Origin: Euglena gracilis
Lineage: Eukaryota
Direction: 5' to 3'
DNA: 64,000 nucleotides
Assembly (NCBI GenBank): GCA_039621445.1
Contig: CP154954.1
Coordinates: 37,495,703-37,559,702 of the forward strand
A model generated the notes under the pieces. That model worked only from the letters and a program-made list of their open reading frames with translations. It was not told the DNA's origin and searched no databases. A program made the position numbers and the translations under genes. Positions 22,452 to 55,300 of this stretch are shown here, in pieces (position 1 is the stretch's first letter; every line of letters begins with the position of its first letter).

Positions 22452-22734
22452 CAGGGGTTTTTTTAAGACCGGGGGGGAGGGGGGGTGCGACCCCACCCAC
22501 CCCCCCCCGGGGGGGGCCCCCGGGGGGGGGGGGGGGGGTCCCGGGGGACCCACAAAAAAATGGCCGAAAAATCGCGAAAAGTGCTAAAAATAGATTTTTT
22601 TCGGCGCCTGCGGCGCCGAAAAGTATATCCCACCCCCCTCCGGGGGGACCCCCCCGGCGGGGGGGGGGGGGGGGGGGCTCGGCCGGACCCACCCACCCTA
22701 CCCCCCCCGGGGGTCCACGACTAAAAAACCCCTG
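22452..22734. mobile_element. CAG-ended MITE with 8-bp TSD (hAT-like)
   Basis: TIR CAGGGGTTTTTT/AAAAAACCCCTG; perfect TSD GTCCCAAA (22444-22451, 22735-22742). Confidence 0.92.
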
Positions 22735-23768
22735 GTCCCAAACAGAGTGGTCACAGGGGTTCAATGAAAAAAAAATTGTGGCCTAAAATACTTGTTCAAT
22801 GGGGATCAATAATTGTGTCCAAAGTATCCGGAGGGACAACAAAATTGGCCAGGAGGGATCTTCATTTTGTCCTTGAGTGTCCGCAAGCTGTAAAGGCGCA
22901 TGCAGCCGAAGGAGCCAGTCCACTACCCCCCCCCCCCCTGGGTGCTTGGCCCGGGCCTTGATTGAAAGTAAGCCTGGGGGCTCAACCTTCGGGCTGAATT
23001 TTGCATGTTAAAACATTCGGGGGCAATTTGAAGGCATTCGAAGAATGGCTGGGAAGAAGATCCAACACATTTTGAAATGCCTTGGCTAAATCTCCTTGGA
23101 ACTGTGTGTGGCCAGTGCAAAAAAAACAACCTATGTTCCAAAAAAGTGCAGTTGACAGAGGAGGGTGTCAACGACACGCTGTGTCAATGACATGGGGGGG
23201 TTTAGGGAGGGGGGGGCAACCACCCGGGGGAGGGCAAGAGCCAAGGGGGGGAAGAACTGACACTCCCAAATTTGATGGAAATTAAAAACAAAATCAACAA
23301 AAAATACAGCAGGAATGGTCCAAATAGAAGCACACCCCCTGCTACCAGAGGCGGCAGTCTGCCATACTGCGCTTTTATCGAAGGGGGGGGGGGTGTTTGG
23401 AAAGAAGGGCAGTGGACCTCACTGACAACCTCCACCTCACTTGCCACTTTCAAATCAAACTGGGGTCACATCTAGGTGAGTTAAGCAACATGGTGCGCAT
23501 GAGGCATACGGAAAATGTTAGCAAGCACCTTGGTATTTTTGGACAAACACTGACAAAAACCAGGTATGAAAGTGAACCAGATGAATATGCATTCCTGTGC
23601 AAACAACAAAGCAAATATAAAGAGGTTAGAAATGCATAAATCACAGAACTTTTTTTGCAGCGGCAGACAAACAACAGGTGAGAATGCAAACGAGGACAGG
23701 ATAAGATTTGCATGTCACAAATTCCTGAACACGATAAAAACCTCCTCCTGTTGTCCAATCACTGGGAT

Positions 23769-31385: not shown

Positions 31386-31484
31386 TCACTGTTTCTCCTT
31401 CTGCTTGTGGAAAGTGATATCCAATGACCTGCCATCTAATGGAAATCCATTGAGTGCCTCAAGTGAGGCCAAGCTTTGACTTAG
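31386..31484 (-). CDS. Two-RRM RNA-binding protein, last coding exon (5' boundary uncertain)
   Basis: LSQSLASLEALNGFPLDGRSLDITFHKQKEKQ* is RRM helix 2 and strand 4. Confidence 0.8.
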   Translation of the reverse strand, partial: LSQSLASLEALNGFPLDGRSLDITFHKQKEKQ

Positions 31485-31532
31485 AACAGCACACAAAATT
31501 AAACCGCCAAGCATAAAGAACTCATAGAATAC

Positions 31533-31857: not shown

Positions 31858-34033
31858 CTCTGAACACAACCAAACAAATCTCCATATAAAATAATTACTC
31901 TCACAAACCGAAATAAACATACATCCATTTTCCTTGCTTCCTTTCCATCTATGTGGCATGGGATATTGTGAAAATTGCACCTTTGTCTCACAATTTTTCA
32001 TATTTGCTCATTTTATGATGTTTGTTTTCATATTTTTGTGAGTTTTCAATCTGTTTCAAAATTGGGGGTTTTTCCTGTTTTCTCCCTCAGCATGAGATTT
32101 GTCAAAAAAAACCTTTTTTTGCTTCTGGAAAAAATTTTCTTCATTTTTTCCCTTTGTGCTGAAGACAATGGCTATCAAGCTGTGACGGGCTTGACTTTTA
32201 ATGAAATAAATGTCGCTGAAACAGTGAAATTAACTCAAAGAGAAAGACATTGACTTCAATTCTGAATCCACCATCAAATACCCTCAACCCCCCCAGATTG
32301 TCCCCTGCCCCAAAATGGCCATTCGGCCTGGAAGAAGTTTTGAACCCCCCGTGCCAGATTGGCAAAATTGGCCGGCGCTGGGGGGTCAGGTTGGGCCAAA
32401 CAGAGGAGGGTAAGGTTGGGGGTGGCCAAATTCGGCCCACACAGCTCCGGGAGTCAATAACCAGGGGCAGGGGGGGTCAATACCCGGGGGAGGGGATAAA
32501 CAAAACTCCTTTGGTGCCAAAAGCAACGAAAGCACCAAAATTTCCGACAACAACAAAATAAAGAGTAAAGCTTGGGACAAAATCAAAAAGAATTATTGCC
32601 CCAACTACCAATGACTGTTTAAAAAGAATACTCAAACAAGAAACAATAAATCTTGAGCGACAAAAGAAAAATGTGCAAAATTGGGTGGTCCATGGTGGTC
32701 CATAACATGTGGAGCGACGCGCCAGGAGGTGAGAAATTTTGGTCCAGCGTTCGCGCAGGACCTGAAATGGTTTGATTTTGGGCCCCCTTCCTTATGTGAA
32801 AGCCCCAATTGCGTACATTTTATTCTTCTGGAACAAGGCGCTGCAATTGCAAAAAAAAAAACCCGAAATTTCCCCTCAATTTTTTTTGTATTCACAGAAG
32901 CGAAGCAGGAAATATAGGGATTCTCTCCAGCCGGATGTTTTCGAAGGGCCTCAAGGGGTTTTAAAGTTTGGAGAGGGGGTCAGGGCAGGTTTCTTGTTCG
33001 GATTTTCAAATATGAGACCCCACTTCCAGCCTTCACTTTGCCTTGTTTTCTTTTTCTTGTCAAAAATCAGGCCACCGAGAAGAGGACATATAGTCGACAG
33101 TGGCAAGACCTTATCCGCATTGGCTAAGCTGATCTCGACATTCCCTCGAAATCTTGGCTGAAAAAAAACAACCCACCTGGATTTGGGCCTTTTTGCCTGT
33201 TTCTGGGTTCCCGCCGGGTCCAGCCCAGTAGCTGGTAGGACCTCCCCTGGATCTCCTCCTCCCCGAGGGGTGGCAGAGCCTAACACCTTTTTCCAGCCAT
33301 CCATTCCCTGACAGAAACCCAGGGACAACTGCCCAGGGACATTCAAATTCCATCATTTTGCGGGGTTTTTTGGAAATTTCAGCATTTTGGCGGATTTGCA
33401 CTTTTCCACCAGAATCCCAAGACAACCTAAGATTGCGCGATCCAGTTCAGTTTGCCCAGTCAGATTGTTGCAGGTGAACAGAAACCCCCAAAAAAGTTTC
33501 AAAAAGGCTACTTTGGTCATTTTGATTCCTTTTTTCAGTTGAATCCAGCTTCGGCAGGCTGCAAAAAGTTTATTGCCGCTCGACCCCTTGGGGGCAGGAA
33601 GGCCTGGTGGGGGGGGGGGTCGGACCCCCCCACCCCGGAGGTGGGGGGGGGGGGCCGAAAATGTTGCTTTAGAAGAGGTTGCTTGTACCCTGGAGTTTGC
33701 TGTCAGAGAAAAATTTTGGAAGAGGATGTCTAGTGTGGCCATCTGTGTGAATGTTTGACATTCCAATGCGAGACATTGAGGAACAGCTTTGGAGCAGTTA
33801 TTTGGAAGATTCCTTCGCCTCCCATTTGTGAAACTTTGAGAGATAGCTTTGCCCCACTTTTTGGATGGAAGATGCGAAGTCATCTTGTACGATTAATATG
33901 CAGACCCTTGAAGACATTCCCACCAACTCCATGTGAATCTTAACATCTGCTGTGAAATTTTCAGTTCCTTGGTTCAGATTGTTTCAGACAGGTTTCCCTG
34001 CAAAATTGTCCATCAGGGCCTAAATTTCATGGG

Positions 34034-34286
34034 CAGGGGTTTTTTTAAGACCGGGGGGGGGGTCCCCCCACCCACCCACCCCCTGGGGGGGGGGGGGTCC
34101 CGGGGGACCCACAAAAAATGGCCGAAAAAACGCGAAAAGTGCTAAAAAAATAGCACTTTTTCAGCGCCTTCGGCGCCAAAAAGTATATCCCACCCCCCTC
34201 CGGGGGGACCCCCCCCGGGGGGGGGCTCGGCCGGACCCACCCACCCTACCCCCCCCCCCGGGGGTCCATGACTAAAAAAACCCCTG
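34034..34286. mobile_element. CAG-ended MITE with 8-bp TSD (same family)
   Basis: Perfect TSD TTCATGGG (34026-34033, 34287-34294); internal sequence matches the 22452 copy. Confidence 0.92.
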
Positions 34287-37044
34287 TTCATGGGTCAGAG
34301 GGGCCAATTATTCATGTCCCCGGGGGCCCTAAAGATACGTCCTCCATTCTCCCATTTCCTGCCCGGTGGGGGCCAACGAAAATGTCCGGCCGGGTCCAAC
34401 AATTGTGTCCGTCGGCTCTAAGGCGGGACCCCACCATTGCCCTCCGGGAGGCGGGGGTCCAGCCAGCCAGCCAGCACTTTTTTTCCCAGTCAGCAGCTCC
34501 AAGTTGGGCTGCAACCCCCCCCTTTCCGCGGGCACCGATTTTTAGGTCAAAATTTTCCTTCGGCGCCGAAGGAATTCTCTTTGAGCAGGTGCCATGGTGG
34601 GTGGGGGGGTCATGGTGGGTTTTGTGATCACTGCGCATCATGCAAGCCAGAGGCAACCGCTAATATGACGAGACGCACTGCTTTTAAACATTTGGGGCTC
34701 TAAATTAAAAAAAAACCAAAAACGGTTTTTGGGTTTTTTTTTTGTGATCCTCTTTTTTCAAAAAAAAAAACGCCAGCTGTGGAACCAGACAGGTCCTGGA
34801 CATCCTCAACCCTATCCTATGTACCAAACCAAACTTGTCCACCTAAAAATTCACAAAAAATGTCTTTTCCAGAATAAATTGTTGCTTTTCCAGGAACCTC
34901 ACCAACCTGTCACAAATGATTTTCCAACATTCAGGAAAAAACGGCTCCGTGGTTCATCACCAGGTGATCTAGGACGCAAAATGGATATCATCTGGATTTG
35001 ATGAATCACAAATCGTTCTGGTTGACGAACGTGCAATATCATTCACTTAAAATGTTTGTTTCAGACCTTTGTTTTGTGAAACCCGACAAAAGAAAATCTC
35101 TGTTTTCCGGGGTTTGTTATTCTAAAGAAGTGGCCCGGGTGGCATTTCCCCTCCCTCATTGGCCAAAGAAGGGGTGCAGCCCGCCAAGAGGCGGTGTCAA
35201 TGCAACCAATTTACCCTTGAAGTGTTTATACGTCTGCACCTCACAACCCAATGGCAATTAAACAGTTCGTGGAGGTCTAGTCTGCTCCTTGCAGTCTTTT
35301 CCATCCACCCAGAAAAACGTCATTGGTCTCACACAGAAGGGTCCACGGGGGCTCAACAAAAATGTCTTTGGGGGTCTAAATTTCTCGTCCATCGGGGATC
35401 AATAATTGTGTCCGTTCCTCGGGAATGTGTCCGTGAGGGACAACAAAACTTGGCCGGGAGGGATCTTCATTTGTCCAAAATTCCCTACTCGGGTGTCCGC
35501 TAGCTGTAAGAAAATCCCTGGTTGTCATGCAGCCCCCCCCCCCACCCCACCCCAGGAGGCTGTCCTAAAGATTTTCACATATTTTCCACACGCTGTATAA
35601 ATGGGTTGCTGGTCAGAGTTGTAAGAACCCATGGGAGTGTGGGGGATAACAGCAACTACCACGTTGGGGCGCTTCTGAGGATCCTCTGTGTCAAAGCTTG
35701 TCTGCAGCCCTTGCATCAGCTGCCCTCATGAATTTTGTTGGTAGCCCCCTTAATCAAGAAAACCTTCATCAAAATAAACCACGCACTCATTACCCCATTA
35801 CTCCAGCATGGGGCTCGCATAGGGGGGCAGGGTATTAATGAGAGAGGGGAGGGGGGAGGGGGGTAGTCCTGGACCCCCTCCCCACTGGGCTTAAAAAAAA
35901 ACCGGTGAAGCGCGGAAAAAATTTTGAGGGGCCTCAAAAAATGCCCAAAATTGTGTTTTCAGGTGATTTTTTCTCCAAAATGACAACGGCCCTGGGGGGA
36001 AGGGGGGTGGTCTGGACCCCCCCCTCCCCCGCACAAAACCAACGCTCACTTGATACCCTGCGGGGGGGGGGGGGGGGGGGGTTCGTTATAAAAGCAGGTG
36101 GGCATGGACAAAAAAACTTTGACCGCCAGAATTTTCCCAGAATATTTTCAGCACATGTTTGGGCAAAAATTTGTCGAAAATGCAAAAAAAATCCTGCGCA
36201 AAACGGCAGAAGGAACAAATTTGCGCTTTTAGGTGGGGGATGGTCCCGGGTACTCCCTCTCCTGGGTGGATCAGACAAGAAGGAGGAGATTGAAAACCAC
36301 ATTATTCCAGCCAAATCAGAAAGAAATACACCTCAAACTTTGGACCACATGCTCCCCATCCCCAATACAGCAAAAAAACAGAGCGTTTTGTGAAAAGAAC
36401 ACGCACACATGTCAAAATGTGGGTGTTTCGTGCATTTTAATAGATACCTGAGTCAGACAGTACACAATTTTGGCAATCTTTTGGTCTCTTGAACCATTTG
36501 ATAAGAGAGGGTTGAGACAGAGAACACTTGGCGCATAAAACAGAGTGTTTCCACGTCAACAGAAGTCCAAAAAGCCTGACTTTTTACACCCGGCGCAAAG
36601 TGCCGAAGGTTTTTTGGGCCGCACACAAGGGTACCCAATTAGAACCCCCCTCCCCGGGTTTTCTGCAGACTGACCAAATAGCAGCCCCTGGGGGCTTCAA
36701 ATTGGGGGGTGGTTTATGTCCACACACGGCAGTAGGAACCTGGTGGGTGGGCAAGGGGGTGGGGGGGGGTAATGGTGGCGGTGGTGCTGGTAGGATTATT
36801 GAATTGCATTGTACCTTCCCTGACAAGTCTGAGGATTTGAACTCACAGACAGCCAGCATGGTCCGGGAACAGAATGATCCTCCCCCAAATTATTGTGTGT
36901 GTGTGTGTGTGCCCGACGGGGGGGGGTCATACCCTGACCTGTAACCCCCGACCGGGGGGGGGGTCGCGCAACCAGGTGCCAAAAAAAACCTGGTTATTTC
37001 AGGTCAACTGCAACCCCCCCCGAGGGGGGCTGCTGCTGCTGTTA

Positions 37045-38215: not shown

Positions 38216-38336
38216 AAATCCGTAACCCTTGGATAAACCACGACTGAAATCCATTTCGACACGAATGGAGGCAATTGCTCCAAATTGAGCAAAAAGACGA
38301 TACATAGCAAGCTCATCCACATTGCTGGATAAAGAC
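38216..38336 (-). CDS. RRM protein exon 4 (RRM2, RNP1)
   Basis: SLSSNVDELAMYRLFAQFGAIASIRVEMDFSRGLSKGYGF; 3' boundary assumes the GT donor after TTT. Confidence 0.9.
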
Positions 38337-38683
38337 GGAACCAGGCTTCTTTTTAAGACCGTGTCCTGGTCCGTGAACCACAGCCCCTGGCACCCCCTTC
38401 TTTCAGGTAACCCTTGATCTTCGACACCGCATTGCAGCGTCGAAGAGTGGGCGGAGGTGAGGTGTGTCCGTTAAAAACAAAAAAAATGCTGACTCCGTGC
38501 AACTTTTGACTCACTTTTTACTCACCATTTCAGAGTCCTTTTACTATAAGCCATAGGTACGGCAGAAAGGTCCGAAAATCAGACCCTCCTGAATGTGTGC
38601 CAAAATCGGGTCGTTTCAGGAAGCGATTTCCTGCTTCATCACTCTCCTGATTTCACTGTTCTGAGTTAAATAGAAGCCCGAAC
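38337..38683 (-). other. Non-conventional (euglenid-type) intron, 347 nt, with MITE-derived ends
   Basis: Starts GTT-CGGGCTTCTATTTAA and ends TTAAAAAGAAGCCTG-GTTCC (no AG). Removal restores NLFVRSLSSN in frame. Confidence 0.85.
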
Positions 38684-38891
38684 CGAACAAATAAATTTGA
38701 GCCCTCCTCAGGGGCTTCGGCGCTCACCACAGGGATGTGAACTTGCTTGTTGCGCAATTGCATTGGAATTGTTGCATATGCAAAATCTTGATACGGATCC
38801 AAGGCTGGATGGGTGTAACTTCGCCCAAGTGGATGTTGTCCACCAAACACAGATGATGCCAGGGGATTATAGAACACCATGGGGGAGCAGG
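38684..38891 (-). CDS. RRM protein exon 3 (linker and RNP2 of RRM2)
   Basis: ...CSPMVFYNPLASSVFGG...EAPEEGSNLFVR; preceded by acceptor TGTTTTCCGCCAG; phases consistent with exons 2 and 4. Confidence 0.75.
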
Positions 38892-40931
38892 CTGGCGGAA
38901 AACACTGGCGATCCCTTCAACCCTACTCCACCCCCTCAGAAGCACGGACTTGAAAAAGAGGAAACTTAAAAGCAGAGCTGGTGTGAGGCAAAACAGTCTA
39001 CCCGTCAGAGGTTCTCAAGGACCCAGGGGGGGGGGGAGTCCCATGGGCCGGCTGAAAAAAAGGTGCTGTCTGGACCCCCCCCCTCCTTCGGAACCCCCTG
39101 AAGCAGGGCAGAACGGGCGCCTGGTGGGGGGGGTCCGACCCTCCCCCACCCGGGTGGGGGGAGGGTCAGACCCTCCCCACCACCATAGCGTTTTCACCAA
39201 TTTTGGGAAAACGGGGATTTTGGCCGGGGAAATTTTTTGAAAAATGAAAATGATTTTTTTTGATGGAAACCCACATTTTTTTCACAAAAAAACTCGAAAA
39301 TTTCAGGTTTAAAAATTTTACAAGAGAAGTGTGGGAAAAAAAAACGAAAGTCAAAAAAAAATTGGTCAAAAAATTTGGCACACTCGAATTTTACTGATTT
39401 TTTTTCTTGGAAATTTTTGGATTTTCAATGGCATTTTTTTTGCTTCAAAAACCTCTCAAAATCAAATTTTGAGAAAATGTTGAAATTTTGGAAGGTGTGA
39501 AAAAATGGGGGTTTGGGGGTTTTGTAACCTGCGACTGAGGGGTGGTCGTAAATGAGGGGTGGTTGAAAGACAAAGGGGGGGGGCAGGTGATGTGAGGGAT
39601 CAGAGAGAAAGGACCAAAACAATTTCAGTACCCAAGGCGGTTTTGAACCATTGGTCAAAATTTATCCCCAAAACAACAATTCTATCATAAATACTCAGTC
39701 GATGCCGGGGGGGGGGGGGGGTTGCAGTCCTGCTGGAAACTGGAAGCTGCTGGCAAGGGGTAATCAATACTTGGCGTTCATAAATGGGGGCCATTCTGGC
39801 TTCAGGAATCCCCTGGAAGGCATGTAGAATTGTGGGTTTGCGTCGCGAAAATTTCTCTTCTTTGAAATAAACAGCATCCCCACGAATGCAAGCGTTGAAA
39901 AAATGAATGCAAAAAAAAACTGATGTCCTTCCTGCGATCATTCAATTTGGCCAAACGACGCCCCCGTGACGCCTGCAACTGAGGGGGAAAAGGGGAAAAT
40001 GCCTGCAACTGAGGGGGCCCCCAGGATTTTCTTGAGGCCCGGGGGGTCCTGTGGGAGGGCTGCTGGAAGAAAGCTGCTGGCTGGGCCGGCTGGCTGGGAG
40101 CTGGACTCAGCAGGTATCCAAAAAGTGCCCAAAAACACCCAAATCCAGCTGGGTTGGCATTACTCAGCCAAATTTTGAGGTGAAGACCCAAAAAACCACC
40201 CAAAAATGAAATTCTGGGCCATTTTTGACCTGTTTCCAAAATTTTTGGTTGTTTGTGCCGAAATTATTTTCAATAAAGCCTGGTTTTGGAAGGAGGGGAC
40301 CCCTGCCTGCCCCAATGTGTTCGACCCACAATCTTGGAAGGCACATTTGAATGGGAGAAGACGGTGGATGGGCAGGGTATAAAATGAGATGGGGAGGAGG
40401 GGGTTCTGGAACCCTCCCCCAGAGGGGGTGAGTCAGCCCCCTCCCAGAGCAAAAAAAATTCAGCACAAAATGCCAGAAAATCTTTGGGCCTTGAAAAAAG
40501 CCCAAAGGTGAGTGGCTTGGGTGGACCAAAAAAAGGCAACAACCAAAACAGTATTTGATTGCTGTTATAATCGTGGTGAACAGCAGCATTATGGAGTCAA
40601 AAAGAATGCTTTTAAATGAATTTTCCCAAATACTCAACGGCAATGTTTTTGAAAAATTGTGATTGTTCAAAAGGAAAAAGTGCCAACCTTCGTATTGGCT
40701 TCTGTTTCATGGCTGGTGGCCTTGGTCAGTGGATGTTTCTTTTTAAAAAAAAATTGAACTGCAAGCAATCAGAAGGGGCACAGGGCAACCAGCAAGGCAA
40801 GACAACGATGAATGTGCGGGGGGGGGGGGGAAGGGAGAGCAGGAGGGAGATGAAAAAGGTGGGGCAGGATACAGAAGCATGTCCCCATTTTGAAAACCAT
40901 CAAATGAAATCTGACAAAGAGAAACACTCGC

Positions 40932-41090
40932 AAGATTGTGAGTTGTCGTGTGCCTGCTGCTTTCGCAGCTTGGATCGAGGATTGTCAGCTGGCTTCAATT
41001 CCAAAGGTTTATCATGCCCCTCAATGTATGTGCCATTCAATGCTTTGATGCAATTATCAGCATCCTCAGCCGCTGTGAATTCAATGAGTC
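40932..41090 (-). CDS. RRM protein exon 2 (second half of RRM1)
   Basis: (G)LIEFTAAEDADNCIKALNGTYIEGHDKPLELKPADNPRSKLRK...; the 3' end assumes a GC donor (T|GCGAGT), which keeps frame with exon 3. Confidence 0.85.
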
Positions 41091-41164
41091 CATATCACAC
41101 CATTGTCCCCAACATGGGTGGATGGAGTGGAGGTAGACTCCAAAATGTCTTCCTATGCGAACTA

Positions 41165-42878
41165 AACCCCCCCAAATAATACCCCCCCCCCCGGGGGATT
41201 ATTTGATTTTCGCCCGAAGTCCCGGCCCGAGGGGGGGGGCTCCCGGATCTGGCCTGGGGGGGGGGGTTGTGAGGATCGACCATGGTCGGCCCACGGTTGC
41301 CCTCAGTCGCCCTCGGTCGTGGGGGGTCGACGGAGAAGGTTGTGGGGGTCGACCGAGGGGGTCGACCCCCACCCCACAGACGGACCCCCCCTTTTTTGCA
41401 AGGTTGGTCGCCCTCGGTCGACCCACACAGCACCGTCCATGCTGACCGTCCATGTTCGTGGGCCCCAAGACAAACAAAAATTTTTCAATCCATTTTGGGA
41501 GGCAAATCCCCTTTGTTGCCCAACTGTTTGAGGGCCCCAAATCCCTTATGTTACCCACCCGTTTTCCGGGGCAAATCCCTTTTTGTTGCTCAACTGTCCG
41601 AGGGCCCCAAAATAACAAAATCCCTTATGTTAGCCACCTGATGGGTGGGTAACACAAGGGGATTTGTTATTTTGGGGCCCTCAGACAGTTGAGCAACAAA
41701 GGGGATTTGCCCCCCAAAACTTGAGGGTAACACAAGGGGATTTGTTATTTCGGGGCCCTCGAACAGTTGAGCAATAAAGGGTATTTGCCCCCCAAAATGG
41801 GTGGGTAACACAAGGGATTTGCTCCTCAAAACGGGTGGGGAACACAGGGGCAAATTCCCCTTGTTGCTCAACTGTTCAAGGGCCCCAAAATAACAAAATC
41901 CCTTGTGTTACCCACCATACATCTCTTCAAGGACCCCGGGGGGGTGCTGGGCTAGGGCTAGGCTGGCTAGAAATTTGGGCTGGCTAGCCCGCCCCCCCCC
42001 CGGGGGGGGGGGGGGGGGCTGGGCCCCGGCTGGACCCGAACCGGGGCGAGCTGGACTGAAATCGGAAAAATGCCCAAAAATGACCTGCAGAACACAGTTT
42101 TGAAAAAATGATGCATCTGAAACCCCCCAAAATGCCCCAAACGCCCCCCAAACCCCATTTTTGGCCACTTTTGAACACAGTTTTTCAAAAAATTTCGGCG
42201 CTTTGCGGCGAAAAATTTTGGGCTGGACCCCAAAAAAAGGGGCTGGCTAGCTGCTGGGCTAGCAGCACCCCGCCCCGGGGGGGGTGCTGCTGCGGCTGGG
42301 CTGGGCCCAAATCGGGGCTGGCTGCAGCCGCCCCCCCCGGGGGGGGTTCGCAAAACCTTAGAGAGATGTATGTTACCCACCCCCTTTGTGGGGGTCGACC
42401 GAGGGCGACCGACCTTGGAAAGGGGGGGGGGGTCCGGCTGTGGGGTGGGGGTCGACCATGGTCGCCCTCGGTCGACCCCCACAACCGCAGCTCGGTCGCC
42501 CTCGGTCCCCCCCACGACCGAGGCGACTGTGGGCCGACCATGGTCGACCCCCACAACCCCCCCAGGCCAAATCTACCCCCCCGAGGGGGGGTATTATTTG
42601 GGAGGGGTATTATTTCCCAAAAATTTTCAAAATTTTTTCAAGTCCCCCAAAACCCAAAATAGCACCCAAAACCCCCTTTGGGGTCATTTTTTGTCCTTTC
42701 TCAAAAAATTTAGCATTTTTGGAGGGCAGATGATCGCAATTTGTTGTCAGAGATTGTGATTTTTACCCAAATTTTCAGTCAAATTCCGGGTCGTCGGCCC
42801 AAGATTTGGGGGGGGGGGTATTAATTCGGTGGCCGAAGTCGGACCCCGAGGGGGGGGGTATTATTTGGGGGGAGGGTT
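41165..42878. mobile_element. TA-flanked MITE expanded by nested insertions
   Basis: TA|AACCCCCCCAAATAATACC ... GGTATTATTTGGGGGGAGGGTT|TA; internal GGTCGACC-rich and CAACTGTT/AACAGTTG-rich repeats. Confidence 0.65.
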
Positions 42879-45800
42879 TAATCTACCCCCCCCAAATACA
42901 ATCCTGGGATTCTGGGGTCTGATTTTTGGGAAGAGTGCACTTTTTGGATTTTTTTTGTTGAAAATTTTGGATTACAGCTTTGGCCTGATGCCAGCAATTT
43001 GGCCCGCAGTGTGCCAGAATTCTGGCCACTTCCACCATGAATAAATGAAACCAACACATCCCCTCGCAATTGGAAAAAAGGGGGGGAAATGCCGAAAATT
43101 TTGTTTAGTCTTGGCCTTTCCATCAAATTTTGGAGGTCTCATGATATTGTTTGGATCCGGGTTGTGGGGGGGGTCACGGGGATGAAAAACCCCATCCTAT
43201 TAACCATTTTTTTTTGGAAAAAATGCGATTGTTTCGTTGTTTTGATTTTTGTGAATATTGTTTTTTGGTGCTTTTAAGATTCAGTTTTCGAGTTTTGGGA
43301 ATTTTCAGCAGGGGCTCTAGGCGGTAGACTCCTCCACCCCCACCCGAGCCCAGATAACAAAATCCCTTCTATGTTGGCAACATACTCGGGGGCTAAGTCG
43401 TTTTTGTGGCTCACTTTGGCATAGGCGGGGGGGGGGGCTCTGCCCCCCCCGCACCCCCCCTCAAATAACAAAATCCCTTCTATGTTGGCAATATACTTGG
43501 AGGGCTAAGTCCTTTTTGTGCAAATTTTGACTTATATATTGAAAATCCAACGGGGAGAAGTGTTCTTTTCCCAAAAATGGCCCAAAATGGACATTTTGCC
43601 CCCAGTTTTTTGCTTATTCACCCCCGATTGGGGGTTCTGGAGCCATTTGGGTGGGTTTTGACTGGTTTTGGGGTGATTTGGACAAAAGTTTTTTCTCAGG
43701 GGGGGGGCTTAAAAGTCGGCGAGACTGGCCCGTAACTACATTAGAGTGGGTGACTAGTCGGCCTACCACCCAGGACCCCCCCCCCTGTCTCGCCGACTAG
43801 CTGCCGACCAGGCCTAGTCGGCCGACCAATTGGGTGGTCGGCCGACCACCCAGGACCCCCCCCCAGTCTACCGTTTGCCACTGCAGTTTGGACAAACTTT
43901 TGGTCGAAAAACACAATTTTTTTTGCCACGGGATGGTAACTGGCAGTTTTTTGGGGGGGAAAATGTTTGCAGTTGATTTTGTCGGACGGGGTGGGGTCCA
44001 GTCCGAACCCCCCCCCCACAGAGTCCGGCCAGCCTGCTGGACCCGGCGGGCGCCTCCACACAGAATAAGAGAGTCTTCGTATTTAGGCCGGCGGGGCGTC
44101 TTTGAAGAGGTATTATTTTCTATTGAAAGCTCCCAGACAATTGATGTTCTATAATCATGTTCCATTAAATGAAATATGTTCTATCATTTTCTTTCTGTTG
44201 AGCTCATCATGTCGGCCGTCCCTCTTCATGGAGTCCAACATATATCACAGCTGGTGGCAGACAATATCTATACAAAAATCGACTGCCACTAATGGCGCCG
44301 GGCAGCCTGGCGCCTTTGACACCTTGGGCTGCCCGGCGCCCCTGCTAAAATTGTTACTTAGTGCAGTCGATTGTTCTAAAACCTATTTCGCAGGGCCCGC
44401 ACGCCTGTCTTGAGCAACCTTTAACAATTAGAAACCTATTTCAAAAATTCCCCAAAATTGGCCAAATGGAAATTGTTGCACAAAATACCCCAATATCTGG
44501 CCAAATACCCCCCAAAAACTGCTCAGATGTGATTGACACGTGTCTACTAACCATTTTGAACACTTTTGGGCATTTCTGATTTTCGATCCCCTAGACGCCA
44601 TCTTCCCGCCCGAACCGGCGTTCTGGACGCCGGTTCGGCGCAAAAATTTCTGCGCCGAACCGGCGTCCAGAACGCCGGTTCGGGCGTGAAGCCAGAGCCC
44701 CAATACGAATACCATGAAGCACAGCTGGAATCTAAGGCCATCTGCTGAAAGCCCTTGAGAACTGCTTTCGATCTGCGGGCCAGGAGGGGGAGGGTGGGGG
44801 GGACACCCCCCCCCCCCCACCTAAACAGTTGCGCGGTCTGGGTGATCGAAAATTTTTGACCCCCCAAAACGACCAAAGGGCCAAAACGACCAAACGTGTT
44901 CAGCCAGGGGGCCCCCGAAGGGGGCCCCCTGAAGACGTTTTCAGGCTGAAATCTGGGCTCAGCCACAACTTGTTTGAAAACGTGCCTAACCACAGATGCC
45001 TTAATGGAAAACGTGTCATTGCCACAGATGCCCTCATTGAAAACGTGTCACCCCCCCCTTTTTCCGCAGCCTTCCCACTATGGCTAAACGCACGGCTAAC
45101 TTTGTGCCTTTTGCCACCTCCCCCTAGGACGGAACTGTTGCTGGCTGCTCTCGCGGTATACCAGCAAGATGCCAAGAAGCCGAAGGTTGACCCCCTTCAT
45201 GGCACCTTGCTGGCACAGGGCAACACAAAGAAAAAGTCCGGCTCCGTGGGAGCAGAGCTTGCTGCTGTTGCCAACTGTTTGGAGTTCGCCAAACTGTGTC
45301 AACATCGGCAAGCCTCTTATCCTGAGCTGCATGCTTTCTTTGTTGCTTGGACGGGATGGGAGCATGCTTGTGCTTACCAACCGGGGGGGGAGGGGGGGGT
45401 GGGTGCTATAGGGTGCCTGCCCCTAGCAGGCACACCCCCCCCGGGGGGGGATAGGGGTCCGGGCCGGACCCAGAAAATTTTCATTGAAAATGGCCCTTTC
45501 CCGGCCCCCGGCGCCTTTGGCGCCGGGGTCGGAGGGGGGTGCCTGCTAGGGGCAGGCACCCCCCAAAACCCTACCCCCCCGGGGGGGGGGGGCGGATCGG
45601 GTGCTATGGGGTGCCTGCCCCTAGCACCCCCCCCCGTGGGGTAGGCACCCGACTAAGCGCAAGCCTGGAGGGGAGCTGGAACCCAGCCTGTTGTTCGATG
45701 AGGCGAGCGTCATTGAACAATGTGTGGCTCAACGTGAGCAGCAGTCGGGAACTTTGTTCGTTTCAGGGAATCGTTCGGCAACCTCTTTTCTTCTTTGCCA

Positions 45801-45976
45801 TTCCCAAAAATCCAAATTGTGTGGAGCTGAAAAAAGTTGTGTGTGACGCCTGGGGTTTGGCATATCATTTTCATTGCCAAGATTTGCGGCGGCCACCAAA
45901 GTATGGCTCTTTTTTGTGTAAAGTGTGACGTGTTTCGTGATGTCCGCCACTCCGTGTCATTGTGCTCCAAGGCAAC

Positions 45977-46213
45977 CAGGCTTCTTTTTAAGACCCCCGG
46001 GGGGGTCCCCCCCCCACCCACCCAGGGTGGCGCGGGACCCCCCCGGGGGGGGGGGGGCGGGACCCCCCCCCCAAAATCGGGCCCGTAAAAGGCAATTTCC
46101 AAAAATTTTCGGCGCTTCGCGCCGAAAAGGTATACCCAGCGCCTCCGGCGCGGGACCCACCCACCCACCCCCCCTCCCCCGGGGGGGGGTCTGCTGACTT
46201 AAAAAGAAGCCTG
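45977..46213. mobile_element. Young CAG-ended MITE with 8-bp TSD; TIR matches the ends of intron 38337-38683
   Basis: Perfect 16-bp TIR CAGGCTTCTTTTTAAG/CTTAAAAAGAAGCCTG; perfect TSD AAGGCAAC (45969-45976, 46214-46221). Confidence 0.95.
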
Positions 46214-46339
46214 AAGGCAACCTAGCCTTCTGTTGTGTTGTAGAGTGCCCCCGACCCGCCTCACTCGTTGAGGACCACCCGACCTCGCAACCACCCGCTG
46301 ATTTTTCATGACAGCGTTTTTTGCTTTTTACTCAGGGTT

Positions 46340-46492
46340 GCCCCAGATGCCCTAATGGAAAACGTGCCTGAACACAGATGCCTTAATCGAAAACGTGTCA
46401 TTGCCACAGATGCCCTCATTGAAAACGTGCCTAACCACAGATGCCTTAATTGAAAACGTGTCATTGCCACAGATGCCCTCATTGAAAACGTG
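46340..46492. repeat. Short tandem repeat of GAAAACGTG...CACAGATGCC units (also at 44976-45048)
   Basis: Alternating ~31-32-bp subunits, directly visible. Confidence 0.8.
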
Positions 46493-48640
46493 TTCATGAC
46501 CACGAATTTCAGGGCAGGCATTTGGCGGGCTTAACACGTTTTTAACACTGTGTCCAGAACGCCGGTTCGGGCGTGAAGCTGTGTTTCAGAACGCTGGTTT
46601 GGGCTGCCGCCCGAACCGGCGTTCTGGACACAGTTTTCGTATCAGAAACCCATACAGTGGTTTTTTTGTTGTTTTCACGGCGCCCCTCTGAAAACCATTT
46701 AAACCGGCGTTTGAGACGCCGGGTTCAGGACAGAACCGGCGTCCCCCCCCCCCATGGGTTTTCCGGACGCCGGACAGAACCGGCGTCCGCCACCCCTTTT
46801 TTGTAGTATATACAAACGGGCGCCTGTCTTGAAAACCGTTCGACCTTTTGTGAAATCTCTTATTTGCCTCATCATCCTTCTTTAAAGCTGTGAAGTGTGC
46901 AATGTTCGGTGGCACTGTGTGTGGATCTCCGACATCCACCCAGCTTTGGGTGGATGTGCGAGGGCTGTCGCAGCGCTATGTAGTTGTTCAGTTTCCGTTG
47001 TGATCCTGGTTGTGATTGTGCCCTGGTGATTTTTGTCTTTTGTCTGTACGTTTCTGTCGTTAACCCTATTTCAGCTCTTGTTGAGCTCTGGGGCACCAGT
47101 CCCCACACATTCTTTTGTGCCTTCAATTGTGGGTTCACTAGGGTGGTGACATTCGTGAAAAGTGGTCGGAAAGAAAAGTAAAAGATCGTGAAATCTCATG
47201 AAATTTCAGGGGCCGGAAATTTCAGTCACGACCCTAGGATTCACAGATCCTTTTGTGGCTTCAATCAGTTACCAGCTGCCTACATCCCACGGGCGCCTGT
47301 CTTGAAAACCGTTTCATACAAACGGGCGCTTGGTCTTGCAAAGCCGCCCAGAACGCCGCCCGCCACTGCGGGCCGCCGGCCTGCCTGCCTCCTCAATATG
47401 CTCCCATCCCACGTGGAAAGTGGAAAGTGCCAATAGTTAGAAGCCAGCACCTTTCTTCCAGCTGGGAGTCATGGTGGTGCAAACGCAAATTGGTGCCAAA
47501 TGTTTTTTTGGTATTTATCATGTTTCCAGCTAGCCTGGCACTTCCCGTTTTTAAGACCTGGATCGGAGAAAGCAGTTCTTTGCTTGATGGTGAAGCAACA
47601 AAAAACATATTGGCAGGAAATCTGTTGTTTGGGCGACATCCTGTCATGGAAGCTCCACTCAGGGGTTTTTTTTTTAGCACCTTTTCATATTTTTCGGTGC
47701 CTTCAGCACCGAAAAATATGTTCCCACCAGCCCTTACACCCACCGCCCCCCCCCCCCCGGGGGGGGAGGGGTCCAAGGGACCCACCCACCCTACCCCCCT
47801 GGGGGGGGTAGGGGGGCAAGACTAATTTTTAGCATTTTTGGACATTTTCGGGCAAAAGTGGGTCCCCCCGGGGGGGGGGACACCCCAGGGGGGGGTGGAT
47901 GCCGACCCCCTCCCCCCCCGGTCTTAAAAAATCCCTGGTTTCAGTGCCAAATTTTCTTTTTGTTGCAAATTTTCTGCCATTTTGCCACTTTCTGCCCACT
48001 TGAACGTTTTTGTGAAAATCAGGGGGGGTGATCATGATGATGATGATGGCGACGACAAATATTATTCTTATTATTGTTATTATCATTATTGTTATTCTCA
48101 AAAAATGAGGGAATTTTTTGTTGAACCCCGGAAAGGTTTGGAGCAGGATTCTTTAAGTGAACGTCTTTTTTGGCCCCCCAAAAGCCCCCCCCCCGGACCT
48201 CCTCTTCCTTCCCTTTTTGGGGGTGGGTGCAGGGCTACCCCCTCCCTCTTAAAAAAAGAACTCTTCCCTTCTTTCCGGCTTTATCCCAAAGTGCCTTGCA
48301 TTCACCTCCCCCCCCCCCGTCTCACAGTTCCGTGGCTGCTGGTGGTGGCTGGTCCCCCTCCTCACCGCCATCGGCGCCGCCAGCTGGACACGCAGGGCGG
48401 CGCTGTGAAAATGGTCAGTTCGGGGGTGGCCAGGCGATTTCCCTTCGGGAATGCACCCCCCAAACTGGGCGATGAGGATTTTCTCACAAAAGAAATCCAC
48501 CCCAACCCTGGTTGGTGAACATGTGGTGACCCCAAACGCATTTCTCAGTGCAAAGTGGCAAATCTTCTCTGCCGTGTTTGTCCTCCCTGACAGGTAGTTG
48601 CAGATCCCTAACAGACCCATTTTGGGGTTTTGGCCAGAAG

Positions 48641-48806
48641 CAGGGGTTTTTTTTAATCTTGGACCCCCCGGGGAGGGGGTAGGTGGCCCCCAGGGGAATA
48701 TTTTTGAAAAGGTGCTATTTTCAGCATTTTTGCGATTTTTAGCCATTTTTGGGGAAAAGTGAGTGGGTCCCCTGGGACCTCCCCGGTCTTTTAAAAAAAA
48801 CCCCTG
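48641..48806. mobile_element. CAG-ended MITE with 8-bp TSD
   Basis: CAGGGGTTTTTTTTAA/TTAAAAAAAACCCCTG; perfect TSD GCCAGAAG. Confidence 0.92.
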
Positions 48807-51800
48807 GCCAGAAGTGTCCACCGAGGAATGGCGCGCCCCTGCCGCAGATCTCGCCCATCGACAGCAGCCTGGCCAACACGTTGGCGTGGGCAGCGGTGGC
48901 CAGCACCTACGGCTGGCTGTGGGTGGACTACCTCCGCCCACGGCTGCTGGGTGCCGCACCGCTGCCCATGCTCCGCGGTTGGGGGGGCTTTTGCCCTGGG
49001 TGTATGGTCTTGAAAACCGTTTTTTTTTTGGGAACGGTTTCTGCTAAAACCGGTCAATGTCAGTCGATTTTCAAGACAGGTGTCGGGTGAGATTTAAACA
49101 CATATGGACTTTTCGTGAACTCTGATACAAAAACTGTGTCCAGAACGCCGGTTCGGGGGCCCCGAGCGGATTTCCGGTGGTGGTCGCTGTGGTGGTCGGC
49201 CCGACCTTATCGACCTGTGGTGGTCGGGCCGACCTGGTCGGCCCGACCACCATTTTTTTGCACCACCCCCCCCCCCCCTTCTGGAAATTTAAGCCGGCGT
49301 TTGAGACGCCGGGTTCAGGACAGAACCGGCGTCCCCCCCCACGGGCTTCCGGACGCCGGTTCTGTACTAAAACCAGGCGTTAGGAACGCCGGCTTTGTCC
49401 AAAGCCCGGCGTCCGATTTTCATTCCTAAAAATGTCACCAAAAGTGTCCAAAAGTGGCCCTGAGGTGCTGGTATGAGTGTTTCAACCATCAAGGACAATG
49501 ATTTTTGCCATCTGGGGACCACTAGGGTGGATATCCAAATTTGGTGAAAATTGGCCCAGATTTGGAAATAGAGTACCGTGCAGCGTGGAAAGATCTGATG
49601 AGCACCGCTGGTCGTCTGTTGAAAAGAGCTTTCGATCGAGGGGTAACTTGGTACCCTAACGTTGCACGCAGCCCGAGATACGCTCGCGATCGTCGGATCG
49701 GCCAGAATCTGAGTCGAAATTTGTCGCAATTTTCAGTGATTTTTGGTTTAAGATGCTTAATAAACCTTACAGAAACGTTTTTCCTCTTCGAATCAACGAC
49801 CTGAGGGCCTTGGGGGGGGCACCAGAGTTGTGAAATTAGGATTCCCCACTGACAGAAAATAAGAGCTCCAGGCGACCTGGCTGAATTTGGTGGTGATCGC
49901 CAGTCGTCTGATGAAAAGAGCTTTCGATCGAGGGGTGAGTTTGTACCAGGACGATCAACACAGCCAGAAATACCCTCGCGATCGCCGGAATTTGGTGAAG
50001 TGCAAAGTGGTGTGACATTGCAGATCAGTGGTCGGAGGTTGGTCCTGGGAGTGTCCTTTGGCCGAAGGTTGGGTACGCCGGTTCTGTCCTGAGCCCGGCG
50101 TCTCTAAAACGCCGGGCTTTGGACAGAACCGGCGTCCGACACCTCTTTTTTGTAGTAAAGCCCCCCCCCCTGAAATTTTTTTTGTCCAAATCACCCCAAA
50201 ACCAGTCAAAACCCACTTAAATGGCTCCAGAACCCCCCAATCGGGGGTGAATATGCAAAAACTTGGGGGGGAAATGCCCATTTTGGGCCACTTTTGGCAA
50301 AAGAACACCACTCCCCATCGGATTTTCAATATAATTGCAAAATTTTGCACAAAAAGGATTTAGCCCTCCAAGTATGTTGCCAACATAGAGGGGATTTTGT
50401 TATTTGAGGGGGGGGTGCGGGGGGGCGGAGCCCCCCCTGCCTATGAAAAAGTGAGCCACAAAAACAACTTCTCCCCCGAGCATGTTGCCAACACAGAAGG
50501 GATTATTTGACGTTCGGATGGGGGTGGAGGGAGGAGTTTCCTGCCTCTCGTGATGCAGAATGCTTGCATTTCTAAAGGATTTTCATGTAATCCCTGTTTC
50601 ATCATTGTTTTTTTTTACCCCTCCGGGCCCCCATCAGGGGTCCACCGACCCCCCACCGACCAAAGATTTCCATCTGGGGGTGTTTATTTAGGCGTAAGAC
50701 ACTTATTTGGACCCATCCGGACCATTTCCGGGTGATTTGGGCCCGCCACAGACCATGTTTATAACCACCGACCAGCCACCGACTTGTTTGCATGGGATTT
50801 TCTTCAGGGGTACTTAAATGTCGGCGGTACTGACCCGTTAGTACATTAGAGTAGGTAGGCAGACTACCCAATACCCCCCCCACCCCGTCCTCCCCACCCC
50901 ACCTCGCCGACCAGCTACCGACCATTAGTCGGCCGACTCCCCCCCCACCCCCCAGTCTACTGCCATGCGCCACGAAGGCCTCCTGGTCGAAGGCCGCACA
51001 GCGGCCGAGGGCCGCCGCAACGGCCGAAGGCCGCTGCAATTCAGACCAACCAGTCGGCCAACTACCCAATACCCCGCCACCAAGTCTCGCCAACTAGCTA
51101 CCGACCGTTAGTCGACCGACTACCCCCCCCTGCCAATCTACCGCCATGCGCCCCGAAGGCCGCCTGGCCGAAGGCCGTGCATCGGCCGAAGGCCGAAGCC
51201 CGCGCAGCGGCCGAAGGCCGCTGCAATTCAGAACTTGAAAAGTTGATGACGTTATTTAAAGGAGTAGGGTTAGGGTCAAGTTTCCATCCCTAACTGTCCC
51301 ATCCCATCCCCTCAACGTCGTTAAATTGGTGTCTGCAGGGGACCCAGCGAACCCAAAGAGGCGCCCAACTAGGGTTAAAAACATTGGGGGACCCGAGCGA
51401 GGCGCCGAAGGCGCCGAGCGAGGGTCCCCCAATGTGTATTAACCCTAGTTGGGCGCCTCTTTGGGGTAGCTGGTCCCCTGCAGGCACCACTTTTTCACGC
51501 ATCAGTCACCGACCCTTCAGCTGGTCGATCGACCCTTCAACTGTTTGGTGGCAGGCTGGAAAGGGGGGCTGGTCGGCCGACTAGTCGGCTGACTAGCCAA
51601 TTGGTTGGCCAACCGACGGCGCCAATTGGTCGGTTGGCCTAGTCGGCAGCTAGTCGGTGAGACAGGGGGGGGGGGCCAGTTGGCCGACTAGTCGGCGAAC
51701 TACCCACTCTGTGCTACTGAGTCAACTGCCGACTTTTAAACCCCCCCTGAAAGAAAACTTCGGATCGGGTGGAGGGGGGAGTTTTTCTGCCTCTCGTGAG

Positions 51801-52341
51801 AGTCATGGCCAGTTTCCCCCTACGACCCCCAGGACCCACCGGGGGGCGGTACCCACTTTAGAATAACCTGAACTTGTGCTGCAAAATTTTTGCCAAAAAA
51901 ATGCGGGACCCACCAAGGACCCCCCCCCCCAGCACCCCCCCAGGACACCCCCCAGCACCCTCCGAAGTCTGACTGGGGGGGACCTGGCCAGGACCCCCCC
52001 AGGTCCCCCCAGGACCCCCCCAGGACATGGTCACTGGCCATAAATGCATTTCCATCACATAAGTGCATAAGGACATCAGAACTGGCCATAAGTGCATTTC
52101 CGGGTGATTTGGGGCCTTCACAGACCATTTTTATGCCCACCGACCAGCCACCGACCACCCACCGACCAGGGGGGGGGGGGCTTAAAAATGCAAAAAAGGG
52201 GGGTAGTGCAAAAAAATGGTGGTCGGCCCGACCACCACAGGTCGGTCGACCACCACCACAGGTCGGGCCGACCATGGTCGGCCCGACCACCACAGCGACC
52301 ACCACCGGAAATCTGCACGGAGCCAATAGGAGCCCGGTTCG

Positions 52342-55300
52342 GGCGTTCTGGACACAGTTGTTGAAACCGTGGATTAGGGGCTCTGGCTTCACGCCCGAAC
52401 CGGCGTTCAAGGAATGCAGGCCAATTTCGGCCTAAATACCCATTTTTCGAACATTTTGGAGCATTTTTGGCTCCTTTGGGCGCATGGCCATGTCGATGGG
52501 CCGATTGAAGTTTTCACTGGTCTGGTGCCATATCACCCATCGATCGAAAGCTCTTCTCAAGGGCTTTTGGTAGATGGCCACAGGATTCAGCCATTATGCA
52601 CAGCGCTTATTTTCAGCGATCGTGCATTCCAAAATTTGACATCTTAATTTGTGAAATCCCACACCTCAGGTGCCATACAGCATATCAATTGAAAGCTCTC
52701 GCCAAGACCTTTCATTTGGACCCTCAGAACTCAGCTACACTGCAGAGCACTCTGAAAATCGGCGATCGCATTTTCCGACCCTGTTTGCAAAGTCGAAATT
52801 CCTATGTTTCACCAGCCATGTTGCCCATCGATCGAAAGCTCTTCTCAGGGGCTTTCAGCAGATGGCCTTGGATTCCAGCCGTGGTGTATGGTGTTCTACT
52901 TCAAAAACTCCCCAAATTTGGCCAAATGGAAATTGTTGCACAAAATACCCCAATATCTGGCCAAATACGGTACTTGTCTGTTATCGCACGACGCACGTTA
53001 TCGCACGACGCCCTTGGAACGGCCAGAATGCTTTCCCTTGGGGTCTGTTTCAGCCGTTTTGGGTGGTTTTGTGGTTATTTTGTGAAGGGAGGCGAGGCCC
53101 TGCCGTACCCCTTGGCACACCACACAAGGGGAAACCCAAAGGCGGCAGACAGGCAGGGGGATAGAAAGATAAAGCGTGCCGACCATTCGGCCCCAAAAGG
53201 GATTTGCCATCCTGAACACATGGAGAGAAACAGGGCAATTTGCCCAAATTTGGCCAAATTCAAAAAAGGCAAAATCTTCGCAATTACAACTCCCAACCCT
53301 AACCCCATTCCTCCCAATAACCCAATACAGCCACCGGAAGAGGAAAGGAAGGCGTCGTGCGATAACCAAAAGGGGGGGGTATGTCGTGCGATAACAGACA
53401 AGTACCCCAAATACCCCCCAAAAACTGCTCAGATGTGATTACCACGTGTCTACTAACCATTTTGAACACTTTTTGGCACTTTTTATTTTCGATCCCCTGG
53501 ACGCCATCTTCCCGCCCGAACCGGCGTTCTGGACGCCGGTTCGGCGCAAAAATTTCTGCGCCGAACCGGCGTCCAGAACGCCGGTTCGGGCGTGAAGCCA
53601 GAGCCCCAATACACGGTTTCAAGGTTATGCCCATATGCTCGCAGTTGTCGAAACGATGGATTAAGGGTCATGCCCGAACCTGCGTTCAAGGAATCATGAT
53701 TGAAAATTTTCACCTCAGACGCCATTTCACTCCCCCCCCAGCACAAAAATTTGAATAAAACATTGTCGTTCAAAGTATTCCCATTGCTCCAGAACGCCGG
53801 TTTGGGCGAACGCCAAGTTGGGCTGACGCTTGAACCGGTGTTCTGAGGAATGGCTTTCTGTGGCCCCAAATTTTTTACTTGCGCTTTTGCGCCGGAAATT
53901 TTTTTGCACAGGGGGTCCGACCCCCCCCCCCCCCCCCGGGGTCCAGACCCCCCACTCACAATACACTTAGCGTCTGAAATGCTTGCCCACAACCTGTCAA
54001 GGTTTTGGCCTGGAGCCCTCAAAAAAGTTTGCCCAAAGGTCTCAAATTTTTTTTGCACTGCGCCCCAAAATTCTTGCACTTTGTTCCAAAAAAATTTGCA
54101 CTTTGCCATTTAAACCGGCGTTTGAGACGCCGGGTTCAGGACAGAACCAGCGTCCCCCCCACGGGTTTTCCGGACGCCGGTTCTGTACTAAAACCCGGCG
54201 TTAGGAACGCCGGCTTTGTCCAAAGCCCGGCGTCCGGTTTTCATTCCTAAAAATGTCATCAAAAGTGCCCAAAAGTGACCCTAAGGTGCTGGTATGACTG
54301 CCATCTGAGGACCAGTGGGGTGGATATCCAAATTTGGTGAAAATTGGCCCAGATTTGGAAATAGAGTACCGTGCGGCGTGGAAAGATCTGATGAGCACCG
54401 CTGGTCATCTGTTGAAAAGAGCTTTCGATCGAGGGGTAACTTGGCACCCTAACGTTGCACACAGCCCGAGATACGCTCGCGATCGTCGGACCAGCCAGAA
54501 TCTGAGTCGAAATTTGTGGTAATTTTCAGTGATTTTTGGTTTAAGATGCTGAATAAACCTTACAGACACGTTTTTTCTCTTGAAACCGTGTATTGGGGCT
54601 CTGGCTTCACGCCCGAACCGGCGTTCCAGAACGCCGGTTCGGCGCAGAAAATTTTGCGCCGAACCGGCGTTCTGGAACGCCGGTTCGGGCGGGAAGATGG
54701 CGTCCAGGGGACCGAACATAAAAAGTGCCAAAAAATGTTCAAAATGCTTAGCAGACATGTGGCAATCACATCTGAGCAGTTTTTGGGGGGTAATTGGCCA
54801 TATATTGGGGTATTTTGTGCAACAATTTCCATTTGGCCAAATTTAGGGAATTTTTGAAATAGAATACCATGCAGCACGGCTGAAATCTAAGGCCATCTGC
54901 TGAAAGTCCTTGAGAAGAGCTTTCGATCGATGGGCAACATGGCTGGTGAAACATCGGAATTTCGACTTTGCAAACAGGGTCGGAAAATGCGATCGCCGAT
55001 TTTCAGAGTGCTCTGCAGTGTAGCTGAGTTCTGAGGGTCCAAATGAAAGGTCTTGGCGAGAGCTTTCAATTGATATGCTGTATGGCACCTGAGGTGTGGG
55101 ATTTCACAAATTAAGATGTCAAATTTTGGAATGCACGATCGCTGAAAATAAGCGCTGTGCATAATGGCTGAATCCTGTGGCCATCTACCAAAAGCCCTTG
55201 AGAAGAGCTTTCGATCGATGGGTGATATGGCACCAGACCAGTGAAAACTTCAATCGGCCCATCGACATGGCCATGCGCCCAAAGGAGCCAAAAATGCTCC

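Follow-up and report, generated by a model that had tools for sequence, protein, structure and literature searches.

The nonconventional introns of euglenids are among the closest described counterparts of the feature reported here. Passages of a recent study (Nomura et al. 2025, PMC12501133) put these introns at 71.8% of the introns of E. agilis and report knock-ins in E. gracilis that define a splicing code of 5′-N3CDG-/-CH′GN5-6|R. In these passages, the 5′ spacer allows no length but 3 nt, the 3′ spacer measures 5 nt, a length of 6 also being tolerated, and pairing inside the CDG/CH′G motifs is required for splicing. Natural introns with CGG-CCG or CGG-CTG motifs, n = 6 in all, are spliced in the knock-ins described there. 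For the bases at the junctions, passages of Milanowski et al. 2016 (PMC4770533) give a pyrimidine at the last exon base in 49/55 introns and at the last intron base in 49/55, a purine at the first intron base in 51/55 and at the first downstream exon base in 55/55, and an A at exon position +2 in 43/55. The same passages describe a nonconventional gapC intron that is present in one E. agilis strain only, with eight-nucleotide direct repeats at its junctions. The authors take this repeat as a footprint of double-strand-break repair.

In the literature consulted, the origin of euglenid nonconventional introns is given as unclear or only as MITE-like (PMC3935182, PMC12501133, PMC11282704). A MITE origin of nonconventional introns was proposed in 2014 (passages of PMC3935182), and passages of a 2024 review (PMC11282704) equate the CAG/CTG motifs with TIRs and the junction repeats with TSD-like sequences. 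The terms “8 bp”, “hAT” and “superfamily” are absent from these review passages, as is “TSD” from PMC12501133, where the origin is called unclear in 2025.

Target preferences have been described for hAT elements, with passages of PMC10368747 and PMC3276498 giving the motif nTnnnnAn for Hermes and GTNCGNAC for hobo. Merlin and P elements also make 8-bp TSDs, and Merlin ends in GG. In E. gracilis, Merlin elements that make 8-bp duplications have been described (passages of PMC8101967), so that a length of 8 bp alone is no proof of a hAT element.

The window studied here is a stretch of 64,000 nucleotides from Euglena gracilis, to which all positions refer. Its minus strand carries a gene with two RRMs (RRM-a and RRM-b), in which the Pfam profile RRM_1 has matches in four ORF pieces. 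The relevant ORFs and gene parts are the following.

58046-58345, minus strand: ORF with a Pfam match to RRM_1 profile positions 1-42
40903-41094, minus strand: ORF with a Pfam match to RRM_1 profile positions 41-67
38102-38335, minus strand: ORF with a Pfam match to RRM_1 profile positions 6-44
58153..58291, minus strand: exon 1 (MNKNVFIRNL...SKGFG), RRM_1 profile 1-42, RNP2 uninterrupted
41091..58152, minus strand: 17,062-nt intron, the second nonconventional one, in RNP1 of the first RRM (KGFG|LIEF)
40985..41090 (3′ border approximate), minus strand: start of exon 2 (LIEFTAAEDADNCIKALNG...), RRM_1 profile 41-67
38684..38916 (5′ border approximate within the ORF), minus strand: exon A, the linker, with the end ...EGSNLFVR
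38337..38683, minus strand: intron B, nonconventional, 347 nt, interrupting RNP2 of the second RRM
38221..38336, minus strand: exon B (SLSSNVDEL...SKGYG), RRM_1 profile 6-44, 3′ border placed by RRM spacing only
31389..31504, minus strand: possible last exon (LILCAVLSQSLASLEALNGFPLDGRSLDITFHKQKEKQ, then stop), tentatively the second half of RRM-b

The LFVR at the end of exon A corresponds to RRM_1 profile positions 1-4. No Pfam match was obtained for the possible last exon at 31389..31504. An ORF with an RNP2-like “LYVGNI” at 50373-50390, which sits in a repeat family, was considered as a part of the gene and dropped. The gene model has four probable introns, and two of the four carry the pattern of inverted repeats and TSD-like flanks.

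Intron B is the clearest of these, and it is probably a MITE insertion that nonconventional splicing removes together with one TSD copy. Its ends in gene sense read GTT CGG...CTG GTTCC|G, and the terminal features are located as follows.

38342..38360: TIR at the gene-sense 3′ end, CAGGCTTCTTTTTAAGACC on the plus strand, identical at 19/19 positions to 45977-45995
38666..38680: TIR at the gene-sense 5′ end, TTAAATAGAAGCCCG on the plus strand, identical at 13/15 positions to the right end of the MITE, 46199-46213
38334..38341: TSD copy GACGGAAC, gene sense GTTCC|GTC, with 5 intronic and 3 exonic bases
38681..38688: TSD copy AACCGAAC, gene sense GTTCG|GTT, with 5 exonic and 3 intronic bases

The initial annotation had assigned the ends of this 347-nt segment to the TIRs of the MITE at 45977-46213, and the assignment holds at both ends (19/19 and 13/15). 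The probability of a chance match of the 19-mer anywhere in the window is about 5e-7. The exact 15-mer is found at only three ends in the window, namely both ends of the 45977-46213 MITE and the end at 38342. With up to 3 mismatches, the 15-mer has 14 matches in the window, a number that is reached in 0 of 100 shuffles. The interiors of the 38342-38680 element and the 45977-46213 MITE are unrelated. The 5′ motif of the intron is not CAG: CGG replaces it in the gene-sense 5′ TIR.

A degenerate 8-bp direct repeat had been described around the element, and this too is borne out: the flanks GACGGAAC and AACCGAAC agree at 6/8 positions in the 8-bp TSD register (P = 0.0042 for this fixed register). 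It had further been argued that both mismatches of the repeat lie in the intronic halves. This argument is empty, since a 5|3 cut gives every TSD position one exonic and one intronic copy, and the location of a mismatch is thus without information.

Intron B carries an in-frame stop at 38655-38653 and its length leaves a remainder of 2 on division by 3 (347 mod 3 = 2), and its retention therefore breaks the ORF. Removal of 38337-38683 brings LFVR directly before SLSSNVDEL... and leaves the RRM_1 profile gapless, and the assembled RRM-b aligns to RRM-a without gaps over 67 residues, with a score of 83. The split codon CG|G re-forms CGG, the Arg codon of the paralogous VFIRNL, and the mRNA joined at 38684|38336 is predicted to read ...TTTGTTCGGTCTTTATCC.... 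As RRM-a has no intron at RNP2 and its VFIRNL is uninterrupted, intron B is a gain relative to the paralog.

The ends of intron B were compared with the published code. A 3-nt spacer is followed by CDG at +4 to +6 (GTT CGG), CH′G at -8 to -6 is followed by a spacer of the 5-6-nt kind (CTG GTTCC|), and the first downstream exon base is a purine, the G of exon B. Just inside the motifs, pairing that brings the ends together is present in predicted folds; both the minimum-free-energy and the centroid fold of the intron pair the two terminal repeats (z = -3.0). Short direct repeats make the junction slidable over 3 equivalent positions. Exon A ends in G, where a pyrimidine is common at the last upstream exon base, and the last intron base is C, as expected. 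The motif pair of intron B, CGG-CTG, is among the combinations spliced in the published knock-ins. Intron B conforms to the code in every sequence requirement, and its excision is a prediction from this fit.

GT/GC-AG sites of the introner type are absent from the frame-restoring junction, which ends in CC. The initial annotation had stated that there is no AG acceptor. This is correct for the proposed junction and imprecise for the intron as a whole, which starts with GT at +1/+2 (38683-38682) and contains in-frame AGs at 38347-38346 and 38350-38349, 9 and 12 nt upstream of the 3′ junction. The spliceosome could use this GT with either AG and leave 3 or 4 extra residues in the protein, and passages of PMC12501133 note that 0.8% of E. 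agilis introns bear both kinds of motif. The authors, however, attribute the processing of such hybrids to the nonconventional machinery. In addition, the AGs are preceded by the purine-rich AAAAAGAAG and no pyrimidine tract, and an insertion of these residues would separate RRM_1 profile positions 4 and 5 and reduce the score of RRM-b against RRM-a from 83 to 71 or 70, depending on which AG is used. Spliceosomal removal is consequently regarded as very unlikely, and nonconventional removal at the frame-restoring junction is retained.

It is also conceivable that the MITE disrupted this gene copy, which would now be a pseudogene with the element left in its RNA. The in-frame stop and the frameshift would be expected of such a copy, and the only database proteins that were found run into the element: the search with the exon A protein returned two ORFs of genomic type as “near” matches, both running into intron B with no spliced form, and none as “longer” matches. 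Nevertheless, the insertion is not young, with a TSD of 6/8 and repeats of 13/15, yet both exons have stayed open and give a gapless RRM, and the ends of the element agree with the splicing code in every requirement tested. In a public assembly, a second copy of this locus (P0002) has retained the element. Against window positions 38653-38880, it has one substitution in the exon part, a His-to-Tyr change, and its reading frame shifts just inside the intron, directly past the terminal repeat, as is expected of non-coding intron sequence. The pseudogene explanation is thus improbable.

The preferred account of intron B can be stated as a series of steps. A non-autonomous DNA transposon would have inserted in the RNP2 codons (LFVR|SL) of the second RRM of this two-RRM minus-strand gene, duplicating the 8-mer GTTCGGTC. 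With CAG...CTG termini and 8-bp TSDs, the element would be hAT-like, and by its ends it belongs to the terminal-repeat family that includes the 45977-46213 MITE. Its two repeats would pair in the pre-mRNA, and the euglenid system would make its 5′ cut 3 nt ahead of the CDG and its 3′ cut 5 nt past the CH′G, before a purine. The piece removed would consist of the element and a single TSD copy, and the reading frame from before the insertion would return without a scar. With repeats from +4 to -6 and 3 + 5 = 8, the cut takes out the element with one 8-bp TSD copy, and removal of one copy restores the pre-insertion sequence whatever the site, frame or orientation of the insertion. The claim that intron B equals a MITE plus one TSD under a 3/5 cut is supported by the TIR match, the TSD register, the fit to the code and the gapless RRM, with the excision step as a prediction. 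This local reading is well supported by the sequence and by the published genetics, from which excision in RNA would follow.

The CAG...CTG MITEs of the window were surveyed by a scan. It took elements with CAG...CTG ends, TIRs of at least 9/13, 8-bp flanks matching at 7/8 or more and a length of 40-3000 nt. It returned exactly 5 elements, all with 8/8 TSDs, in agreement with the five copies that had been counted before; in 30 Markov controls, 0.5 elements were returned on average and never more than 2.

45969..46221 with TSDs: reference MITE 45977-46213, 237 nt, inverted repeats 15/15, perfect 8-bp TSD AAGGCAAC
22444..22742 with TSDs: MITE 22452-22734, ends CAGGGGTTTTTTT, TSD GTCCCAAA
31548..31865 with TSDs: MITE 31556-31857, TSD CTCTGAAC, 89% identity to the copy at 22452
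34026..34294 with TSDs: MITE 34034-34286, TSD TTCATGGG
48633..48814 with TSDs: MITE 48641-48806, TSD GCCAGAAG

Three of the five share 77-89% identity over their full length and thus form a real family, to which the MITE at 45977 shows about 68% internal similarity. The terminus CAGG....TTTTTAAGAC is common to all CAG...CTG MITE families. The T2 and A7 of nTnnnnAn are present at 10/14 half-sites over 7 TSDs (P = 4e-4), a small sample. CAG termini are typical of hAT elements. Membership of the window MITEs in the hAT superfamily is putative, and they are called hAT-like here, with no transposase seen. Six long ORFs, picked by eye from many of at least 80 aa, were compared with Pfam; they gave reverse transcriptase, integrase or nothing, and no transposase. 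An autonomous hAT partner would be expected to have the ends CAGGCTTCT or CAGGGGTTT.

Inside the predicted 6.7-kb intron, some 43 nt separate the putative last exon from a young MITE upstream of it (31548-31865), whose TSD is perfect. The MITE at 45977 is flanked on both sides by 32/63-nt tandem repeats with one shared unit (44976-45050 and 46338-46493).

The direction of the relationship could in principle be the reverse, such that nonconventional introns gained mobility and gave rise to the “MITEs” as copies. Intron mobility is discussed for circular intron RNAs (PMC11146597). The perfect 8-bp TSDs beside inverted repeats in 5/5 copies are, on the other hand, the mark of cut-and-paste DNA transposition, and of the five young MITEs, four are located in predicted introns of the RRM gene, one lies outside the gene and none in exons. 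This reversal is considered highly improbable, and a transposon that became an intron is the preferred order of events.

Further MITEs with 8-bp TSDs and other, non-CAG ends occur in the window. Two of these, at 52969-53406 and 59127-59431, have identical 12-nt ends that start with GG (GGTACTTGTCTG) and perfect 8-bp duplications (CCAAATAC and ATTCGGGC), and these GG ends and 8-bp TSDs are the published Merlin signature. An element of 457 nt at 41916-42372 has CATACATCTCTT ends, or CATACATCTCT ends at 11/12, and the 8-bp duplication TTACCCAC.

For older elements, the scan was relaxed to TSDs of at least 6/8 and repeats of at least 10/15. It gave 50 matches against about 14 in controls and re-found the intron B element. 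The matches consisted mostly of G/C runs and palindromes, and as candidates for old elements they were set aside. Matches to the repeat pattern in metagenomes (35 loci) had a single match each with no partner end, mostly in low-GC sequence, and were attributed to chance. A search of the whole window against Rfam gave 0 matches, and one terminal-repeat motif was found in the literature only in unrelated primer matches.

A further intron of this gene, 58152->41091, resembles intron B. Exon 1 ends in ...GGATTTG, followed by GAC CAGACCATTGC, and the intron closes with ACAATGGTGTG ATATG|G, with CAG at +4. The complement of CAGACCATTGC lies at 41096-41106, five bases before exon 2, as a 9/11 inverted repeat (P = 1e-4), and the flanks ATTTGGAC and ATATGGAC agree at 7/8 positions (P = 4e-4). 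The predicted splice yields KGFG|LIEF, the correct RNP1. The 3′ motif is GTG, not CTG, which places this intron outside the strict code.

The second RRM has an apparent intron at the same codon position and phase as this one (KGYG|LILC, ~38220->31505). The shared position and phase suggest that the intron may be older than the RRM duplication. In the predicted intron 38220->31505, inverted repeats are absent and the flanks agree at only 5/8, with a junction set by RRM spacing alone. For the fourth predicted intron, from ~40930 to 38905, there is one candidate border pair with a 7/8 direct repeat and no inverted repeat, and GT-AG options are present too.

The wider claim was that the 3 + 5 consensus is a footprint of CAG-ended, 8-bp-TSD transposons in general, and this is plausible. 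It gains some support from the intron 58152->41091, from the published consensus and from the 8-nt repeat at the new E. agilis intron; the intron 38220->31505, without inverted repeats, speaks against it. Taken to its full extent, the claim is that most N3-CAG...CTG-N5 euglenid introns are former CAG-ended, 8-bp-TSD (hAT-like) MITEs, and that their splicing is an orientation-independent and scar-free removal of transposons at the RNA level, a proposition with about an even chance of being right. On this former-MITE reading, the Y|R at both junctions and the R-A-C exon start would be two copies of a hAT-type target site and not independent signals. The Y|R junction bases would then be positions 5 and 6 of one 8-mer seen twice, and the A at exon position +2 would be TSD position 7, the A of nTnnnnAn.

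The case of intron B may also be real with the sum 3 + 5 = 8 as a coincidence, and the junction repeats may come from double-strand-break repair or from a preference of the enzyme for Y|R. This is held to be less likely than not. The repair reading is the one given for the gapC repeat in the passages of PMC4770533, and a purine as the first exon base is needed for function (|R in the code, passages of PMC12501133). The intron 38220->31505, with its poorly matching flanks, and the window MITEs with 8-bp TSDs and no CAG ends fit a coincidence as well. It is less easily reconciled with two introns in one gene that have inverted repeats from +4 to -6 and flanks of 6/8 and 7/8. A published consensus of Y|R that is equal at both junctions is likewise expected of two copies of an 8-mer, and the common A at exon position +2 (43/55 in the passages of PMC4770533) coincides with the A of nTnnnnAn at TSD position 7.

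The 3 + 5 = 8 TSD arithmetic was not found stated in open-access full text and bioRxiv. New here are the match of intron and MITE at the level of a family, the arithmetic of 8 bp and the interpretation of the junction consensus as a target site, the MITE origin itself having been proposed earlier. The family-level match turns a decade-old conjecture into a countable prediction: the two 8-mers that span the junctions are expected to be copies of one another, in register and over 8 nt only. If true, the former-MITE origin would explain how coding exons could have been flooded, as every insertion would be without harm from the start, whatever its orientation or frame.

The window contains other elements as well. 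A Ty3/gypsy-type retrotransposon pol lies at 2339-7343 on the plus strand, with reverse transcriptase, RNase H, integrase zinc finger and core, SH3 and chromodomain. Adjoining the retrotransposon is an open frame of 1,438 residues (8951-13264, plus strand) with no Pfam match, and a separate reverse-transcriptase ORF is located at 61566-63428. At 52300-55500, a large inverted duplication encloses repeated ORF pieces on opposite strands; its arms reach lengths of 123 nt (93%) and 48 nt (100%), and shorter perfect arms are numerous.

In comparison with known systems, intron B as read here is like the introners of Micromonas and Aureococcus and the noncanonical introns of Amoebophrya and Fritillaria in that a DNA transposon becomes an intron at birth. 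Removal of the introner type takes out the element with part or all of one TSD (passages of PMC11282704 and PMC7789003). Those systems use the spliceosome, with GT/GC-AG or AG-AC-type sites that come from the element or the TSD, and have TSDs of 3-5 nt. In intron B, the predicted cuts are instead placed at fixed distances of 3 and 5 nt from the ends of the paired repeats; the two distances add up to the 8-bp TSD, and the cuts are independent of orientation. Introners of the Micromonas type further occur as numerous near-identical intron copies spread over different genes, and this window contains a single gene.

The removal of maize Ds elements uses cryptic spliceosomal sites and is usually imprecise. 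That Ds elements are spliced from transcripts is reported by Giroux 1994, as cited in passages of PMC3935182. The likeness lies in a hAT-type element that sits in an exon and is removed at the RNA level, which for intron B is a prediction; unlike Ds, the geometry of intron B predicts exact restoration.

The MITE copies in the window are like MITEs of the hAT superfamily in their 8-bp TSDs (5/5), short inverted repeats and lack of coding capacity. Intron B itself is like the nonconventional introns of euglenids (Milanowski 2014, 2016; Nomura et al. 2025) in its N3-CDG...CH′G-N5|R arrangement and paired ends, in having no AG at the frame-restoring junction and in its short, slidable direct repeats. 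It is unlike the published euglenid introns in that its ends can be assigned to a family whose members are also found free, as MITEs with perfect TSDs.
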